A stretch of 64,000 nt of DNA from an uncultured Nitrosopumilaceae archaeon (lineage in GTDB: Archaea > Thermoproteota > Nitrososphaeria > Nitrososphaerales > Nitrosopumilaceae), in assembly GCA_964538885.1 (NCBI GenBank), contig CAZIHR010000018.1:9811-73810 (forward strand), given 5' to 3'. Shown here in pieces: positions 19,552 through 27,080 of the stretch. The first letter of the stretch is position 1. Each line of letters begins with the position of its first letter. The position numbers and the translations under genes are program-made. The notes beneath the pieces are model-generated. The model had not been told where the DNA came from, ran no database searches, and worked only from the letters and a program-made list of their open reading frames with translations.

Positions 19552-19662
19552 CCTTTAACCTCGCAAAACTAATTATAGTAATATTTAACATTTTCTAAAG
19601 TCTAATATATAAGCATATCGGAAAATTTAGCGTCTTGTGCAATCCCGAAATCAGTTCGCCCC

Positions 19663-20652
19663 CTACTCGACATCATACACCTCCCCTGATTGCGCATCTA
19701 TAACGCTGGTTCCCTTTGGTGGCATTTTACGTACAAATGCTTTGGCGGGTGTTTCCAGAGAGTCTCAGTCAAGCGACATATGGGGCCGGATGTGGTTCCA
19801 CCAATGGACAAGCTCATGAATATCTGAAAACCACTTTTGTTTGCGTTGTATCTCCCCATGGAATCGCTCCAGCTTGCCGTTTGTCTGGGGGTGGTTGACA
19901 CGTGCGAGTATGTGCCTTATCTCTAGTGATTTATTACTGTTTTCATCCTATCCCGTTCGCTGGTGGTTGACACGTGCAAGTATGTGCCTTATCTCTAGCC
20001 TGACTAGTTCCTGCTCAAACTCGGATGCCCCCTTTTTCTTATGCTCGGACTCACTGGCATAGAACTGACTGCCGCGGTCAGTCAGGATTGACGCCGGCCT
20101 GCCGTGCTTTTTTATGGCAGTGTGCAGTACCTCTATTGCGTGCCTACCCGTGGCATGTGCAAACACACCATATCCGGCTATGAACCGCGAGGCATCGTCC
20201 TGATACGCTATGAACCACCTGCCATCATCTAGGAGTTTATAGTCGGTGTGCCACAAAGAGTTGGAGTGCGTGCGTTCATATCGCACCCATTTAAGCCTGC
20301 GTGACTTTTTTGGCTGTTTTGTGGCCATCGCCCCATCCCTCATTATCCTGTGTATGGTATTATGAGGTATATGGATTCCGCGCAGGTCCAGCGCCTTCTC
20401 AATTCCCACGGTGCCTATTCGGTATTGTCCAAAGTATTCTGATACCCGCGTGCGCATCCTGTCGGCGATGACCGCCAACGGCCTGCCGGGCCTCCCAAGA
20501 GCCGGAATCTTTCCTGTGGCAAGATACCTAGCATACAACTTTTGGATCCATCGCCCACACACCTTCATTTCCAGTGCTATCTCGCCTGTACTCCTACCAA
20601 GTTCCTTCTGCCGTATGATGTATTTCACCTTGATGGGATCAAGCTTTGCCAT
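19663..20652 (-). pseudogene. IS481-like DDE (integrase-core) transposase, disrupted by an in-frame insertion carrying TAG (19948-19950) and by an in-frame TGA (19765-19767)
   Basis: The N-terminal HTH, WHTDYK (D) and LTDRGSQF (D) lie in the 234-aa ORF. Hand translation downstream continues in frame as LEIRHILARVNHPQTNGKLERFHGEIQRKQKWFSDIHELVHWWNHIRPHMSLD-TGA-DSLETPAKAFVRKMPPKGTSVIDAQSGEVYDVE, which contains the catalytic E motif (NGKLERFH). Confidence 0.75.
19890..19998. repeat. 37-bp direct repeat (36/37 identical) flanking a 35-bp spacer inside the transposase gene
   Basis: GGTGGTTGACACGTGC[G/A]AGTATGTGCCTTATCTCTAG occurs at 19890-19926 and 19962-19998, a period of 72 bp. Confidence 0.9.
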
Positions 20653-20758
20653 GATTCTGTGTTGCTTTCCCCTATTCCAAACGTATCGTTTGCCTAGCTT
20701 ACGTCTTAAATAGCGAACTGATTTCAGGACTATAGAACAGAGTTTCTCTTAAAATACA

Positions 20759-20766
20759 TTTTTAAA
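20759..20766 (+). promoter_or_regulatory. TATA-like box upstream of the Cys-rich micro-ORF
   Basis: TTTTTAAA is centred about 27 nt upstream of the ATG at 20789. Confidence 0.3.
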
Positions 20767-20788
20767 GTAGTGATGCCTCCTCATTACT

Positions 20789-20923
20789 ATGTCAGATGCA
20801 GCATGTGGTTGCGCAGCGCAGGCAGAAAATAATACTGACTGCGACTGTACAATGCAGAGTGAATGCTTCTGTGACTCTACATGTGATTGCAAATTAGAAG
20901 TTTGCGCAAACGCTGAGCACTAG
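20789..20923 (+). CDS. 44-aa cysteine-rich peptide with four CxC motifs (metallothionein-like)
   Basis: Hand translation: MSDAACGCAAQAENNTDCDCTMQSECFCDSTCDCKLEVCANAEH. It has 9 Cys in 44 aa (CGC, CDC, CFC, CDC plus one more), no aromatic or hydrophobic core, and a TATA-like box at the right distance. It is too short for the ORF track. Confidence 0.45.
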   Translation: MSDAACGCAAQAENNTDCDCTMQSECFCDSTCDCKLEVCANAEH

Positions 20924-20945
20924 CAGCTGTTCATTTTCCTTTTTT

Positions 20946-21203
20946 TTATTCGTCTTCATCTTCCTTGATGCCCCATGATTTTACTAGTTCGGCGGTGAAC
21001 TTTGTGGATTGTTTTTCATCTAGGGCAAAACCACAATTTTTATGTGTAGGAACTACAATCATGCCATCTAGCTTGAACTCGACTTCATACAAATGGATTT
21101 TGGTGCATTCACACATACTGAAAACTTGACAGCATTCCTCTATATTTGCGTATTTAGTGTGCAGAAACACCTTACTAACGAACATATGCGTCCACCCAGA
21201 CAC
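20946..21203 (-). CDS. hypothetical protein (85 aa, acidic C-terminus)
   Basis: ORF only. No recognisable motif. Confidence 0.3.
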   Translation of the reverse strand: MSGWTHMFVSKVFLHTKYANIEECCQVFSMCECTKIHLYEVEFKLDGMIVVPTHKNCGFALDEKQSTKFTAELVKSWGIKEDEDE

Positions 21204-21268
21204 GTTGTGTTTTTTCTATTTGCATTTGAATAACCTTTAACTAACCTACTACAGTACTTTTTCTTGAT

Positions 21269-22771
21269 TTGAAGTCACTGTTTTTCGTAATACCGTTGGC
21301 TACAATCTTGCTTATTAGTACAGTCGTGATGCCCACTTATGCGCAGTTTCAATCTGGTGGAGTGGACAAGGATGGTGAATGGTATGCGGGTGAAGGTCTC
21401 AAGCAAGGAGATTACTTTTCATATAGAATGTGTCATGTGGATTATAAGGAATGTGCATCTTTTACCATGAATATTTGGTTTAAGGGAGATGTCAAGATCG
21501 AAACGGAGGAGCAATGGGTTGCCGAAGTTGTGGTGTATGATGGGAGCAAGATAATTGTTGGTGAAATGAATCTGGGTAAGCTTGCACCAGAACCAACAGG
21601 TAGCAGTATCGAATTGGACACTTATGCAAGTGCATTCAAATCGTCGATTGTTTGGCTGTCTGCATTTGCAACAGAATATGGCGACTCGGGTGGCGAAGGA
21701 CCAAAAGCATTTCGTGATATATCATGGGGAAAGATTGCAAATATAGGAGGTGAACAAATCCTCCCCACCGCAATTGAGAATGTTACCGTTCCTGCAGGGA
21801 CATGGGAAACAGTAGTGATCACTTGGAAGACTGGTGGCTATGTAAGCAAAGTCTGGCTTGTGGATGACTTTCCTTTCCCGATAAAGGCTGCAACACTAAC
21901 TCATGTCTCAGAAGGAATCCCACCCCCAGAATATCAATTTGAGCTGTTAGATTACAAGGAAAATGTGCAGCAGAGTCCATTTGAAGGAATAGCATCTACA
22001 AAGAATGAACAAATTGCCAAAGGATGCCCACAAAGTTTTGAAAAGGTCAGCATAAAAAAACCTTCAAAGAATTTCCAATATCAAGTACATGTAATTTATG
22101 GTCCAGAATATCCCATACAGGGATGTGAAATGGAGTGGTTGATCAAGTTTATCAGCAAATATGATGACACAGAATTCCTAAATCAAGTACAATATGATTT
22201 GTTGGTAGTAGACGAGAATCAAGTTCCCATTCGCTCAATTGCACACGATGAAGGCCGACAATTCTTGTATTCTCCTTCGGGGCAGTCGATTATCGATATG
22301 ACGGTAAACGAGGAGCTTGGCACGGCCAAATATGTGATATGGATTTATGGACTTGCCCCAGAAAACCGCGTTCCTGCTACTATGGATGACTATGTTGAGA
22401 TCACCATTCCAATATCTGAGCATCGAACTGATGACCTGACTGGTACCGGCCAAAGTATTCCCTCTTGGGTAAAGAACAATGCGGGATGGTGGGCAGACGG
22501 ACAGATCGATGATAACTCATTCGTACAAGGCATACAATACCTCATCAAAGAAGGGATCATGAAGATTCCGCCCACTGCACCAAGTACAGGCACTGGAAAC
22601 AACCAGATCCCCTCTTGGGTAAAGAACAATGCGGGATGGTGGGCAGACGGACAGATCGATGATAACTCATTCGTACAAGGCATACAATACCTCATCAAAG
22701 AAGGAATAGTGAGAATTCCTACCCAGACAGAATCAGAAACAAGTGAGGCACCACCACTTTGGCTGGATTGA
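21269..22771 (+). CDS. secreted protein with two C-terminal copies of a ~35-aa W-rich module (IPSWVKNNAGWWADGQIDDNSFVQGIQYLIKEGI)
   Basis: 500 aa with a TTG start and a signal-like N-terminus (MKSLFFVIPLATILLISTVVMPTYAQ). The C-terminal module is duplicated. I do not recognise the N-terminal domain. Confidence 0.65.
   Translation: MKSLFFVIPLATILLISTVVMPTYAQFQSGGVDKDGEWYAGEGLKQGDYFSYRMCHVDYKECASFTMNIWFKGDVKIETEEQWVAEVVVYDGSKIIVGEMNLGKLAPEPTGSSIELDTYASAFKSSIVWLSAFATEYGDSGGEGPKAFRDISWGKIANIGGEQILPTAIENVTVPAGTWETVVITWKTGGYVSKVWLVDDFPFPIKAATLTHVSEGIPPPEYQFELLDYKENVQQSPFEGIASTKNEQIAKGCPQSFEKVSIKKPSKNFQYQVHVIYGPEYPIQGCEMEWLIKFISKYDDTEFLNQVQYDLLVVDENQVPIRSIAHDEGRQFLYSPSGQSIIDMTVNEELGTAKYVIWIYGLAPENRVPATMDDYVEITIPISEHRTDDLTGTGQSIPSWVKNNAGWWADGQIDDNSFVQGIQYLIKEGIMKIPPTAPSTGTGNNQIPSWVKNNAGWWADGQIDDNSFVQGIQYLIKEGIVRIPTQTESETSEAPPLWLD
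22460..22704 (+). repeat. 150-bp-period tandem duplication with a 95-bp stretch of 100% nucleotide identity
   Basis: 22460-22554 is identical to 22610-22704 by direct comparison. The flanks diverge. Confidence 0.9.
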
Positions 22772-22794
22772 TTTTTCCTAGATGTTGATTTACC

Positions 22795-23154
22795 ATGGTA
22801 AGTATCTTCAATTATCCAAAACGTCGTCTCAAGAAACTGGTTAGAGATGGTGAGTATGCTGATGCTCTAGAATTTGGCCACAAGATCGAATCTCAATATT
22901 CTGATGATTCAAATTTTATGTTCATTATGGGCAGCATCTACTTTATGGTTGAGGATCCTAAAAAGGCATTGCCGTACTTTGAAAGATCACTGTCCCTAAA
23001 ATCAGATGATGTTGAGGCACTTATGCTGAAAACTAATACACATCTGTCTTTGCATCAGAAAGATGAAGCAATAGATTGTTGTAGGAAGATAATAAAGTTA
23101 GAGCCTGAAAATTATGAGGCCCACGGCCTATTGGAAAAACTCAAAGTAAGTTAG
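22795..23154 (+). CDS. tetratricopeptide-repeat (TPR) protein
   Basis: 119 aa with about three 34-aa TPR-like units (YADALEFGHKI, ALPYFERSLSLKSDD, AIDCCRKIIKLEPENYEA). Confidence 0.65.
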   Translation: MVSIFNYPKRRLKKLVRDGEYADALEFGHKIESQYSDDSNFMFIMGSIYFMVEDPKKALPYFERSLSLKSDDVEALMLKTNTHLSLHQKDEAIDCCRKIIKLEPENYEAHGLLEKLKVS

Positions 23155-23636
23155 ATTTGCCTACTCCTCATTTCATATGCATGTTCCAACAGCCAGTCGC
23201 AAAATTTGGTCACCTCACAAGTGAACTCTGTCCAGATATGAACAGAATGGGGTAGTATGTCAATCTTCCAGTTATCGGTGTATACCCTTACCCCTTCCTT
23301 GTTTTCATACATGTACGCGTCTGAAACCTGAACATTACCAAGTGTCTCTTTGGCTTTTGTCTTGATGATGTTTCTGTCAATCGGAAATCTTTTACGATCA
23401 TAGTCTACAATCAAGCTCAAATCCCTTTTTCCATACATGTTGAATTCATCTATTCTGCCCTCCTTTGGAAAATTTACCACAAGCTTGATACCGTATTTTT
23501 TACCCACCTCTTTGCCTATCTCCACAATTCTTGCATATCCTAGGGCGGGGCTTTTTTTTAACAGAATACGTATCTGTGCAATATTCATCTTCAAATTGGT
23601 CTGAAGATCACCTGTTATCTCAGAAAACAACATCAT
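23151..23636 (-). CDS. hypothetical protein (161 aa)
   Basis: A long ORF with ordinary composition, divergent from 23704..24360. No motif recognised. Confidence 0.4.
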   Translation of the reverse strand: MMLFSEITGDLQTNLKMNIAQIRILLKKSPALGYARIVEIGKEVGKKYGIKLVVNFPKEGRIDEFNMYGKRDLSLIVDYDRKRFPIDRNIIKTKAKETLGNVQVSDAYMYENKEGVRVYTDNWKIDILPHSVHIWTEFTCEVTKFCDWLLEHAYEMRSRQI

Positions 23637-23703
23637 GTTACAAGCAGCCTCACAATTGTTCCTATTAATCAGTACCTGAGATTGATTTTTTAACTAATAG
23701 TAT

Positions 23704-24360
23704 GTGTCTTTTTTCATGGCCATGCCGATGGATTATGATGGAATGCGCACTGATGATGCATCAGAGAGAACCAATGACGTAAACGAATACAAAAGGACAT
23801 GTATGGACTTTATTGAAGATATTTCTCATGACTATGAGGCATGGGTGGACTATTACAAACTTCCTGACGTGGATGACAAAAGGCGGCGAGCAGAAATACG
23901 GGCCACAATTCAAAAGACAAATCACTGGATTGCCAAAGTGGGCCAGACCATCAAGGCAGTGGATGTCATCATGAATGATGGCATCCAGAAGATGGCAGAA
24001 TCTACAGCTGGTAAACCTCTGGAAATAGGTGTATTCGTGAATGGCAAGTCAAGTTACACCGAGGCACAACCTGGAGTTATTGATGTCAACGTCAAGGCAA
24101 GTGGTAGAAAAGGTAGAAAGATGAAGTTGGGATTACACTTTAAGGACTCTAGATTTCGGATAGAATCCACCTGCAACGCCTACTTGGAGGAGAACAATCT
24201 ACCAAACGAGGAATTTGACTTTATGGATATACACCTTCGTATGCATGCTGAGAATGCACATCAACGTGATGTTATATCATTTACGGTGACCGTTAGTGAA
24301 TTTGAAAATGATGTGGAGATTGATAGGAGGGGCCTGAGCACTATTGTTCATATAGTGTGA
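23704..24360 (+). CDS. hypothetical protein (about 214-218 aa)
   Basis: A long ORF. The likely start is ATG 23716 (MAMPMDYDG). No motif recognised. Confidence 0.4.
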   Translation: MSFFMAMPMDYDGMRTDDASERTNDVNEYKRTCMDFIEDISHDYEAWVDYYKLPDVDDKRRRAEIRATIQKTNHWIAKVGQTIKAVDVIMNDGIQKMAESTAGKPLEIGVFVNGKSSYTEAQPGVIDVNVKASGRKGRKMKLGLHFKDSRFRIESTCNAYLEENNLPNEEFDFMDIHLRMHAENAHQRDVISFTVTVSEFENDVEIDRRGLSTIVHIV

Positions 24361-24697
24361 CTTCAAGTACTACTCTTCTTTCATCTGCACGGGGTTCACC
24401 TGGGTATTTTAGTTTGGATATCTTTCTACATAGTTCCTCGTCGTCCACAGAGCTAGCCTTTCCGTGATATGTTGTGCCGTCATATTGTACGATGACTTTG
24501 GGATGCGCAAGTGCGTTTTTGAACCAGTCAGAGTCTGGTCTGTGCCTTGAAAAATATATCTTTCCATTATGTGATACTGCTAGTAACATTACTGAGTGTG
24601 CTTTCATAGTCTTCCTACCGATGGTTCTTAAGGTGGCCCTGAAAGAATCCACATTAGTCATATGCACACAAGTTCTTATCAAGTAATTTAATCTCAT
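24341..24697 (-). CDS. PNPOx-like split beta-barrel protein (possibly a deazaflavin/F420-dependent nitroreductase-family, DUF385-like)
   Basis: GRKTMKAHSVMLLAV...DSDWFKNALAHPKVIVQYDGTTYHGKA resembles the GRKSG...W(Y/F)xNLxAxPxVxV core as I recall it. The start is probably an internal Met. Confidence 0.4.
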   Translation of the reverse strand: MRLNYLIRTCVHMTNVDSFRATLRTIGRKTMKAHSVMLLAVSHNGKIYFSRHRPDSDWFKNALAHPKVIVQYDGTTYHGKASSVDDEELCRKISKLKYPGEPRADERRVVLEVTLYEQ

Positions 24698-24940
24698 TGA
24701 TAACTACCATTTTAATCATTTATCTGGTTTCGTGTTTAAAAACTGTGTTTCCTAATTGTGCCAGTAGACATGCCTAGCCTAGTATTTTTTTCATGTCAGT
24801 CAGGTATTTTTTACATTAGAAGTCAAGTGTGCAAGACATGTTATCCCACCAGTACTCAAAATGATGGGACAGAGATGTCAGGCACAATGTATACTTGCAG
24901 AATATGGATTTAAGAATGAAGCGGTGGCGCGGCCAGTCCG

Positions 24941-25243
24941 TTGGGGAGGAGACTGCCCGTGAGCCGGACACGTGGCACCGCGATAGCCAAAACAGATAAC
25001 GAAAAATACGTCAAACGCGGCGCGGATCTGATCATAGAGCATGATCCTAGGTGGGAAGACGACGTAAGGCGCGCAAACAAGGGCAAGGTCGGCGCCTCGT
25101 ACCAGTACGCAGACACGTTCATCATGTTGGCCGCTGGCATCAGAATATCGCTAGGGATCCAGTACAGGCAGCTCCAGGGAATGGTAGGCAAAATGTTACG
25201 CGGGTACGACACGCCCGTGTTCAGCCAGATGTACAGGAATTAA
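24941..25243 (+). pseudogene. N-terminal fragment of an IS5-like transposase within a GC-rich island
   Basis: KGKVGASYQYADTFIMLAAGIRISLGIQYRQLQGMVGKML fits the G-x-P-x-x-Y-S-D-x-FI-x-L...YR-x-L-E/Q-G pattern of IS5-type transposase N-termini. No DDE catalytic domain follows. GC content is conspicuously higher than the flanks, and all three overlapping frames are open. Confidence 0.4.
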
Positions 25244-25387
25244 TGTACATGAATTTACAAGCGTCGCTATATGTACTGTTTTTTGAATTGAAATTTAAGA
25301 CATTGGTTGGAAATAAAGTACTTTTTGACCTCATTAGTAGGAAATTGTGATATTAGTCATGATAAATAAATTCGTCTAACTGTATAC

Positions 25388-25840
25388 ATGTCAGTTAAGT
25401 TGGAAGGAATGCCAGCAAATTTGGTTACAGCAGATGACTTTGCAGGCAAAAAAGTCATAGATAGGGAAGGAATTGAGTATGGAAAGGTAAAACACATTCA
25501 CATAAACCGTGACACACTTGTGGTCTCTGGTGTAACCATTCATCAAGGATTTCATAAGGACTATTTTCTTCCAGAGGATTATATCGACAAGTTTTCTAAT
25601 GAGACACTACTTCTGAGCAGACCTCCTATACGAACCGGAATACAAGTGGTTGACATTGATGGCCACAAGACAGGCAAAATAAAACGGATTCACAGAAATC
25701 CAGACACAAATGAGATAGAGTCAGTTGAGGTGAGTGATGGACTGGTGCATTCTAAGATACTTTCTAAATCTGATATTTGGGGAGTAGGTGAGAAAGTGAT
25801 CTTGAGGATGACTCGAGACGAGTTTAAGGCTAGTGAATAG
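25388..25840 (+). CDS. PRC-barrel domain protein (two PRC-like halves)
   Basis: 150 aa. GKKVIDREGIEYGKVKHIHINRDTLVVSGVTI and VVDIDGHKTGKIKRIHRNPDTNEIESVEV match the PRC-barrel pattern. Confidence 0.65.
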   Translation: MSVKLEGMPANLVTADDFAGKKVIDREGIEYGKVKHIHINRDTLVVSGVTIHQGFHKDYFLPEDYIDKFSNETLLLSRPPIRTGIQVVDIDGHKTGKIKRIHRNPDTNEIESVEVSDGLVHSKILSKSDIWGVGEKVILRMTRDEFKASE

Positions 25841-26153
25841 ACCCTCATTATTTTGACTTGCTACACGTCTTGCAAATTGGAATGCCATCCACAATGATGA
25901 TGTCTACATTTGATGAAAAGCACTTCCGGCAGAGTCCTTTCATGCATGTGCATTTATGTAAAGCACTTTATCTTTTTTGTGTTACTGATAGTTTGATATG
26001 CCTGCTCATATACAGATCAAGTTATATTCTGTGGATGAGAATTTCTCTGTACGTCAACGAATAACTAAAATTTGTGTATGTTCTAATATTCTGTTTTCTA
26101 TTTTGATGATGTGACTTTGACAGTTTTATTGGAGCATGTATGTGGCCCGACAC

Positions 26154-27080
26154 CTATTCTGATGTGGAATGTAAAATATCTTGACTCATGTCTTGAATTA
26201 CATGTGCGTGCCTTAGTGTTGTGGTGGGATCTGCTTCTAGATCGAATGCTACTTTCAGCATGTGGATTAGATCTGGATTGGCAGAAATCGAATACCGTAT
26301 CTTGAGAAAGTTTGTCTTGTTAATATATCCTAGATAAAAATAACAGTCAGAAAGCATTGCGTTTTTCACAAAATTATTGTGTTTGTTCTTGATAGCTTGG
26401 GTGTGTTCACCATTTTTTGTAACGTCTGAAAAACCAATTGTAGATTTCAGCATCCGTTCTAGTAGCGAGGGTGTGGCCCTCTCAATTCCAAGCGTTTGGG
26501 TTATCTGTGACATCTTTTCATTTGTATCATTTTTCCACAACTTGCGTGTTGTTTCTAGCATGTGGGATGGACTGGGGGGTTTTTGATTTAGTGCAAACAC
26601 CGCGTCTGCTAGAAGATATGAAGCACATTTTTGCCAACATGCAGAAAACACATCCGAGTCCTGTAATCCTGTTATGCATTTCTGACAACAGAACATGGAT
26701 TCTATGAGACAGTTTCTTGCGTGATCCTTAAATATCTTGGAACGTCTCTCCTCTAATCTCGTTAGGAATCCGCCCAACTCCAACGAGCCATCTGACATTA
26801 TCTGCATTCCATACAAATGGATCAGCTTACTTGTTCGCGTCTCATTAATGGAATGGTGATGTACGTTCACAAATTGTCCCTCATATGGAAGAACCTGACA
26901 ATTCTGCTGACTTTCATCAAATACTGCAATATCATAGTCGCACGAATCAAATGGATTTCCATGCGCCCTGCATCCAGTCATTGCTATGGGAATTTCATGT
27001 AGGCCATTACTCGTCAAAAATTTTTCTAGTTCCATATACAACTCGTGTTTGTGTGTTTGTATAAAACACTGGACAGACAA
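26154..27080 (-). CDS. hypothetical protein, with a possible minimal nucleotidyltransferase fold at the N-terminus
   Basis: 308 aa. MTGCRAHGNPFDSCDYDIAVFDE loosely fits the G-x-x-x-x-G...D-x-D NTase signature. The remainder is predicted helical. The call is weak. Confidence 0.3.
   Translation of the reverse strand: MSVQCFIQTHKHELYMELEKFLTSNGLHEIPIAMTGCRAHGNPFDSCDYDIAVFDESQQNCQVLPYEGQFVNVHHHSINETRTSKLIHLYGMQIMSDGSLELGGFLTRLEERRSKIFKDHARNCLIESMFCCQKCITGLQDSDVFSACWQKCASYLLADAVFALNQKPPSPSHMLETTRKLWKNDTNEKMSQITQTLGIERATPSLLERMLKSTIGFSDVTKNGEHTQAIKNKHNNFVKNAMLSDCYFYLGYINKTNFLKIRYSISANPDLIHMLKVAFDLEADPTTTLRHAHVIQDMSQDILHSTSE

Follow-up and report, generated by a model that had tools for sequence, protein, structure and literature searches.

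Does a 44-codon open frame in which one residue in five is Cys encode a protein, and if so, what would such a peptide do in its host? The question arises from a 64,000-nt stretch of a contig of an uncultured Nitrosopumilaceae archaeon, the whole of which is hereafter called the window. Members of the Nitrosopumilaceae carry out much of the marine and freshwater ammonia oxidation, are among the most abundant archaea of the ocean, and have a metabolism that relies on copper enzymes. The arrangement of the Cys residues in the predicted product recalls the metallothioneins, which are stated to be absent from Archaea (reviews PMC4187156 and PMC8836122). Here, we describe the frame, its conservation and its genomic setting, and weigh the functions that it may have.

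Anatomy of the nine-Cys reading frame

The coding sequence and the signals that flank it are located as follows:

20789-20923, + strand: nine-Cys coding sequence (ATG at 20789, TAG at 20921-20923)
20759-20766, + strand: TATA box TTTTTAAA, with its 3' end 22 nt and its centre ~26 nt from the ATG
20934-20947, + strand: oligo-T tracts, first TTTT and then T8, 11-24 nt past the stop codon

The product of the frame is a 44-aa peptide, MSDAACGCAAQAENNTDCDCTMQSECFCDSTCDCKLEVCANAEH, in which Cys residues occupy positions 6, 8, 18, 20, 26, 28, 32, 34, and 39. They are arranged as four C-x-C pairs (6/8, 18/20, 26/28, and 32/34) plus the single C39, and the chain ends with a His residue. Re-reading of the frame agreed with the first-pass annotation, which had described 44 residues with nine Cys in four C-x-C pairs and one extra Cys. 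The terminal His that it had also listed is present here, but it is confined to the closest clade, and the family alignment contains no conserved His.

With a mass of 4.6 kDa (44-48 aa in 91 distinct orthologues), the peptide falls below the limit of ~10 kDa for metallothioneins, and its Cys content of 20% (9/44), deployed in a C-x-C array, is also that of a metallothionein. Exactly nine Cys with spacings of 1, 9 or 10, 1, 5, 1, 3, 1, and 4 residues are found in 89 of the 91 orthologues. Their mean hydrophobic fraction is only 0.11, each has 0-2 aromatic residues, and a residue between C26 and C28 is conserved as aromatic or hydrophobic. All are strongly acidic, with net charges ranging from -2 to -11, and the interior of the peptide has little or no Lys and Arg. 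Every pair in the orthologue set is C-x-C and the peptide contains no C-x-x-C, which leaves it without the two or more C-x-x-C knuckles that define the archaeal C(P)xCG zinc fingers and zinc ribbons.

An AF2 prediction for the 44-aa peptide gave a pLDDT of 60.6 and almost no secondary structure, too poor for a fold search, and the low pLDDT may merely reflect the combination of a short protein and a shallow alignment. Metallothioneins fold only upon metal binding (PMC7558416). The lack of a predicted fold would be expected of such a metal-dependent folder and is compatible with one, although it is not diagnostic.

Conservation and selection

The Cys composition by itself is not decisive. When all six frames of the 1.77-Mb genome were examined, 17 of the 8265 ATG-initiated ORFs of 30-80 aa carried nine or more Cys. 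Random frames are Cys-rich in this genome, which has a GC content of 42%, and ORFs of at least 150 aa average 1.2% Cys. Four or more C-x-C pairs were found among the 8265 ORFs only in the nine-Cys ORF and in one repetitive junk frame. It is conservation that lifts the ORF above chance.

A translated search of 60 relatives recovered the peptide in all 36 Nitrosopumilaceae genomes, always as a stand-alone open frame of 45-65 codons, and gave only noise-level matches (E > 0.1) in the 24 genomes from other families of the order. A profile built from 25 sequences detected it in 178 of 180 sampled Nitrosopumilaceae genomes, whereas the 120 genomes searched from 14 further families in the class yielded no match. 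Orthologues lie on contigs named as Nitrosopumilus, Cenarchaeum, Nitrosarchaeum, Nitrosotalea, and Nitrosopelagicus, by which the family was recognised as the Nitrosopumilaceae, and the closest relatives are from sponge-associated MAGs. Close homologues appear in public gene calls as 44-aa proteins that are labelled "hypothetical protein" and lack a Pfam domain, and the earlier description of the ORF as unannotated is wrong for the family.

The coding frame is open in 95 of 95 distinct orthologous DNAs, compared with at most 31 of 95 for any other frame. In the eight orthologues of 44 codons that align without gaps, the third codon position varies in 42 of the 44 codons, the first in 20, and the second in 16, and all nine Cys codon columns switch between TGT and TGC. 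Pairwise pS values range from 0.48 to >1 (saturated) and pN values from 0.02 to 0.34, with a dN/dS of 0.02-0.13 where dS could be computed. Retention of the frame in relatives and purifying selection, two of the checks that the first-pass annotation had proposed, were thus both borne out. At the protein level, C6, G7, C8, C18, D19, C20, C26, C28, C32, C34, and C39 are invariant in the stand-alone copies and in the fused copies described below, and Q23 is conserved in at least 90%. The tightly conserved non-Cys positions comprise D3, A4, G7, D19, M22, Q23, and D29.

These data bear on the possibility that the ORF is a chance open frame, or that the DNA is conserved for another frame or for an RNA. 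The frequency of Cys-rich random ORFs in this genome would favor a chance origin, but neither the exclusive openness of the one frame nor the codon-periodic substitutions with a dN/dS of at most 0.13 would be expected from it; moreover, the region has no Rfam match and a conserved promoter stands at a fixed distance from the ATG (see below). A chance ORF is excluded by the codon-level evidence, and the probability left to this group of explanations as a whole is negligible. Because of the frame openness, the codon-periodic substitutions, the low dN/dS, and the family-wide presence, we conclude that the nine-Cys ORF is a real protein-coding gene under strong purifying selection and a core gene of the Nitrosopumilaceae.

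Promoter and probable terminator

In 24 of 24 orthologous loci, a box with the consensus aaCYTTTAAAA precedes the ATG by the same distance. Throughout the genome, TATA-like hexamers before the starts of long ORFs are sharply concentrated at spacers of 21-25 nt (112 matches), whereas the controls gave a background of ~3 per position and ~1 inside ORFs. The TATA-like element had been placed about 27 nt upstream of the ATG, which is a fair estimate for a box with its centre at ~26 nt, and the claim that this is the spacing of bona fide genes is upheld by the genome-wide peak. Archaeal promoters have the centre of the TATA box ~26-27 nt before the start site. Because the spacer is 22 nt, this geometry predicts a leaderless or near-leaderless mRNA for the nine-Cys gene, with a putative transcription start set by the position of the box. 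A T-rich tract lies downstream of the stop codon in all 24 loci, and the oligo-T tracts that follow the nine-Cys gene likely function as an archaeal transcription terminator.

Genomic neighbourhood and rearrangement

The genes on either side of the nine-Cys gene are as follows:

19948-20652, - strand: IS481-type transposase fragment, the left neighbour (rve, E = 3.7e-11; NF033577, E = 3.8e-37, below the cut-off)
20946-21116, - strand: gene for a 56-aa Cys/His protein (MCECTKIHLYEVEFKLDGMIVVPTHKNCG...SWGIKEDEDE), convergent with the nine-Cys gene, the two stop codons being 22 nt apart

In relatives, the gene order is a ~293-aa gene (+), the 44-aa gene (+), the 56-aa gene (-), a gene for a secreted protein of ~430-490 aa (+), a 119-aa TPR gene (+), a 157-aa gene (-), and a 214-aa gene (+). 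In the window, the 44-aa gene and everything to its right are retained in this order. The ~293-aa gene, which is located 52 nt upstream of the nine-Cys gene in relatives, is found here at ~26172-27035 on the opposite strand. One junction is marked by an IS481 remnant (19641-20731), and an IS5-like stub (24917-25243) is located near the other. Because the ~293-aa gene has moved to the opposite strand and IS remnants lie at both junctions, the block at ~20730-27035 appears to be inverted compared with relatives, with a breakpoint that lies immediately before the TATA box and left it intact.

The first-pass annotation had set the ORF next to an IS remnant. The IS481-type fragment does adjoin the gene, but this is an accident of the present genome: a functional link was rejected, as relatives have a different upstream neighbour and no IS. 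The conserved neighbourhood contains no modification enzyme, transporter, or protease and no Fe-S assembly genes, and no SmtB/ArsR-type regulator was seen adjacent to the nine-Cys gene.

At least 81 of 106 loci have the 56-aa gene together with the nine-Cys gene, and the two also occur together in public gene calls. The 56-aa product has conserved Cys2, Cys4, His8, (His/Cys)25, and Cys28 residues and ends with KSWG and an acidic tail. It belongs to no Pfam family, and family libraries and solved structures returned nothing. The protein was detected in 177 of 180 Nitrosopumilaceae genomes and in three further families within the order (9/9, 34/39, and 4/4 genomes), whereas the remaining ten families searched (68 genomes) gave no match; the protein is possibly a small metal-binding protein common to the ammonia-oxidizing archaea (AOA). 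Because the 56-aa gene is more widely distributed than the nine-Cys gene, we regard it as a neighbour, and a partnership between the two products as unproven. In other AOA families, a search next to the 56-aa gene revealed no metallothionein-like or divergent Cys-rich micro-ORF, and the nine-Cys gene is therefore a lineage-specific addition in the Nitrosopumilaceae.

Two further features of this neighbourhood were observed. The 56-aa gene is usually divergent from the secreted-protein gene, whose product has a W-Y-x-G-x-G motif. In one other AOA family (f15; loci L117 and L119, 828-1067, - strand), the 56-aa gene is followed, on its own strand, by the gene for a basic 79-aa protein. This protein has seven Cys in C-x-x-C pairs, is zinc-ribbon-like, and is unrelated to the nine-Cys module.

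Fused copies of the module

The same ~40 residues form the end of a 456-aa protein encoded elsewhere in the genome (contig C130, 35190-35309, - strand; locus L002, 1480-2994, - strand). The C-terminus of this protein is the sole other genomic site with the same Cys pattern. The fused form occurs in about 14 of 36 related genomes, alongside the free form. Six fused paralogues have a common plan that consists of a signal peptide, an ectodomain of ~300 aa, one TM helix, an R/K flank, and a tail of 114-121 aa. The tail has the motif GYQTSxSxGGYQTNRGEAQL, followed by a variable linker and then by the Cys module at the extreme C-terminus. With the positive-inside rule applied to the R/K flank, the predicted topology puts the nine-Cys module on the cytoplasmic, and hence reducing, side. 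A third architecture, a 129-aa polytopic membrane protein from a metagenome (P0016), also has the module at its C-terminus. Such portability across three architectures is as expected of an autonomous metal-binding unit.

Public data contain over 2800 relatives of the 456-aa protein, all of them "hypothetical" and without Pfam domains, and the ectodomain of the 456-aa protein carries an invariant NWHFLFDPTGINVDA. Sequence searches of Pfam, NCBIfam, and the PDB with the fused protein returned nothing. Its AF2 model is confident only at residues ~40-200, with pLDDT values of 25-39 in the module, and a Foldseek comparison of the model with the PDB gave no match (best E = 0.078, TM ≤ 0.12).

Outside the window, the genome contains two more small Cys-rich ORFs (contigs C29 at 16623 and C43 at 16417, both on the - strand). 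One product has 49 aa, MLPVDVIGEEEFAICVECGNSIEKCVCVCPYCGERDKCDCALFDSATGG, with eight Cys and three C-x-C pairs, and the other is a zinc-ribbon-like protein of 59 aa with ten Cys.

Relation to known families

The peptide has no Pfam family at E ≤ 1 and no NCBIfam family, and neither the peptide nor its profile has relatives in the PDB at E ≤ 10. When 1.84 billion representative proteins were searched exhaustively with HMMER, 26 matches were obtained, all of which belong to the nine-Cys family or its fused forms. No viral contig with the peptide was found, and the literature searched contains no mention of the gene, a locus tag, or its expression.

In an hhalign comparison of the profile with human MT-2A, residues C18-C39 were aligned on the beta-domain with a probability of 47.6%. 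This resemblance appears to be one of pattern and composition, and homology is unsupported: there was no match to the known metallothionein families (PF00131, PF01439, PF02069, and the rest) or to their PDB chains. The term metallothionein-like, as applied to the ORF at the outset, therefore holds for its size, Cys content, C-x-C array, and hydrophobic content of 11%, but the peptide stands outside every known metallothionein family. We propose that it represents a new, sequence-unrelated family of metallothionein make-up, for which metal binding is predicted.

Copper context of the organism

The genome encodes AmoA (E = 5e-118), which bears out the earlier supposition of an ammonia-oxidising host. 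A search of the genome, which is 99.98% complete, for the HMA domain (PF00403) gave no match. Among 37 genomes of the family, HMA was detected in nine, always in open frames of P1B-ATPase size (~810-830 aa), and was not found in 28. Elsewhere, it was present in sister families (8/8, 23/37, and 14/20 genomes), often in small CopZ-like proteins, and in 13 of 14 controls; this contrast rests on related genomes, which amount effectively to one evolutionary event, and on a copper-chaperone survey that covered HMA only. With HMA so scarce, a cytosolic carrier of another type could handle soft metals. The lack of HMA/CopZ-type domains in this genome and the predicted cytoplasmic location of the fused module both fit such a role for the nine-Cys peptide.

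Proposed function and alternatives

We consider that the nine-Cys peptide is a cytoplasmic metal-thiolate peptide with a metallothionein-like buffering or chaperone role and the founder of a new archaeal family, and we assign to this reading a probability of roughly 0.55. An independently transcribed core gene would give rise to a small acidic peptide that presumably resides in the cytoplasm. Its nine Cys residues (C-G-C, x9-10, C-D-C, x5, C-x-C, x3, C-x-C, x4, C) would most likely wrap a polynuclear metal-thiolate cluster, which by analogy with other nine-Cys modules may be an M(II)3Cys9-type cluster of Zn or Cd or a Cu(I)4-6 thiolate. In a copper-dependent ammonia oxidiser without HMA/CopZ-type domains, the peptide would then serve to buffer, store, or pass along soft metal ions within the cytoplasm. 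Further copies of the module would be anchored at the cytoplasmic face of the membrane, as the C-terminal part of the ~456-aa single-pass protein and of the small polytopic protein. A cytoplasmic metal-thiolate cluster is suggested by the invariant C-x-C thiols, the absence of a hydrophobic core and of a signal peptide, the odd number of Cys, and the cytoplasmic location predicted for the fused forms. The type of metal and the choice between buffering and delivery are conjectural.

Several observations weigh against parts of this proposal. The acidic charge counts against a metallothionein-like role, in that vertebrate metallothioneins are Lys-rich. The constraint on the non-Cys positions seems tighter than simple sponging of metal would require, which hints at a specific partner. 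A role tied to copper-dependent ammonia oxidation would lead us to expect the peptide in other AOA families, and the failure to find it in any of the 120 genomes searched outside the Nitrosopumilaceae counts against such a role. More specifically, the peptide could be the founding member of a family-specific archaeal metallothionein that serves as a cytosolic Cu(I) (or Zn) buffer or chaperone in place of CopZ/HMA proteins, with the membrane-tethered copy exchanging metal with a partner in the membrane or the ectodomain. We put this elaboration forward only tentatively. If it is true, it would open a molecular route to understanding copper management in marine ammonia oxidisers and would contradict the textbook view that Archaea are devoid of metallothioneins. 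A universal, selected, and promoter-bearing gene with a metallothionein-type register and membrane-tethered copies is a concrete candidate that is cheap to test. Cultured relatives exist.

The main competing explanation is a structural interaction module, in which a fixed zinc cluster of the Zn3Cys9 type would present an acidic surface to a protein or nucleic-acid partner, and the free peptide could regulate or compete with the membrane-tethered copy. Zn3Cys9 clusters occur in the pre-SET and MSL2/tesmin CXC domains. The fixed register of exactly nine invariant Cys would suit this function, as would the invariance of G7 and D19, the near-invariance of D3, A4, Q23, and D29 at a dN/dS of 0.02-0.13, and the strongly acidic surface (net charge of -2 to -11). 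The coexistence of free and tethered forms in about 14 of 36 related genomes points in the same direction, and the conserved motif of the fused tail suggests a signalling or docking segment. However, the module has no sequence match to such domains, AF2 shows no defined surface, and no partner was found, the one conserved neighbour being convergent and more widely distributed. A structural module would still have to bind metal, so that it overlaps with metal buffering in mechanism and differs in purpose; overall, we consider it doubtful, although it deserves to be taken seriously. An Fe-S mini-protein with one or two clusters, or a thiol redox switch, is unlikely. The dense Cys residues of a cytoplasmic peptide, and the invariant Asp19 and acidity that resemble ferredoxin-like surfaces, are in its favor, and the N-terminal domain of Archaeoglobus fulgidus CopZ is a case in which nine Cys hold a [2Fe-2S] cluster and Zn. 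Nevertheless, the nine-Cys peptide has neither CxxC nor a CxxCxxC...CP motif, and its C-x-C pairs are instead typical of metal-thiolate clusters. Moreover, no Fe-S family was matched in Pfam, NCBIfam, or the PDB, and Fe-S assembly genes are missing from the conserved neighbourhood.

Finally, a small stand-alone gene with its own promoter, whose product is rich in Cys, Ser, Thr, and Asp, could encode the precursor of a Cys-rich peptide that is either modified after its ribosomal synthesis, as in a RiPP, or secreted as a disulfide-rich toxin or signal. Such a precursor is highly improbable. The first Cys is residue 6, with neither a leader nor a signal peptide before it, and the lack of a signal peptide together with the odd number of Cys disfavors a disulfide-bonded secreted peptide. 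The enzymes, transporter, and protease that would accompany a RiPP are not present in the conserved neighbourhood, and the same sequence forms the predicted cytoplasmic end of the 456-aa membrane protein. Furthermore, the gene is universal and single-copy in the whole family, whereas RiPP clusters are patchy.

Comparison with known systems

The pre-SET and MSL2/tesmin CXC domains offer a tentative parallel to the nine-Cys module in having nine Cys with many C-x-C pairs, and the module could form a triangular three-zinc cluster of the same kind. They are domains of eukaryotic chromatin proteins, whereas the module is found as a stand-alone peptide or at the predicted cytoplasmic end of membrane proteins.

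The cyanobacterial SmtA/BmtA proteins (PF02069, PDB 1JJD) are likewise prokaryotic with nine Cys, and are cytosolic, as is predicted of the nine-Cys peptide; SmtA is a prokaryotic metallothionein that binds multiple Zn with nine Cys (PMC7558416). Unlike the nine-Cys peptide, in which no His is conserved, SmtA uses two His ligands, contains aromatic residues, and adopts a zinc-finger-like fold. There is also no sequence match between the two, and no regulator of the SmtB/ArsR type was seen adjacent to the nine-Cys gene.

The Cu-MT of Neurospora crassa (25 aa, seven Cys) and MymT of Mycobacterium tuberculosis (4.9 kDa) are, like the nine-Cys peptide, short C-x-C peptides, and they share the cytosolic location that is predicted for it. 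The fungal Cu-MT also starts with a C-G-C motif. MymT, likewise the product of a small ORF that had not been annotated, has a predicted capacity of up to six Cu(I) ions (PMC7558416). Neither has a sequence relationship with the nine-Cys peptide, and the number and spacing of the Cys differ. In addition, MymT and the fungal metallothioneins are metal-induced resistance factors of patchy occurrence, in contrast to a universal core gene of one family.

In comparison with the vertebrate beta-domain, represented by residues 1-30 of human MT-2A (PF00131), the nine-Cys peptide is acidic instead of Lys-rich, has a longer first spacer (9-10 residues), and consists of a single domain. It also has the invariant Gly7 and Asp19 and membrane-tethered copies, and has no Pfam match. 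The mammalian beta-domain binds three Zn or Cd ions as M3Cys9, or up to six Cu(I) ions. The two are alike in their small size and near lack of a hydrophobic core, and the nine-Cys peptide may, like the beta-domain, have no fold without metal. Both have nine Cys arranged as four C-x-C pairs plus a single Cys, and the register C-x-C-x5-C-x-C-x3-C-x-C is identical in the two.
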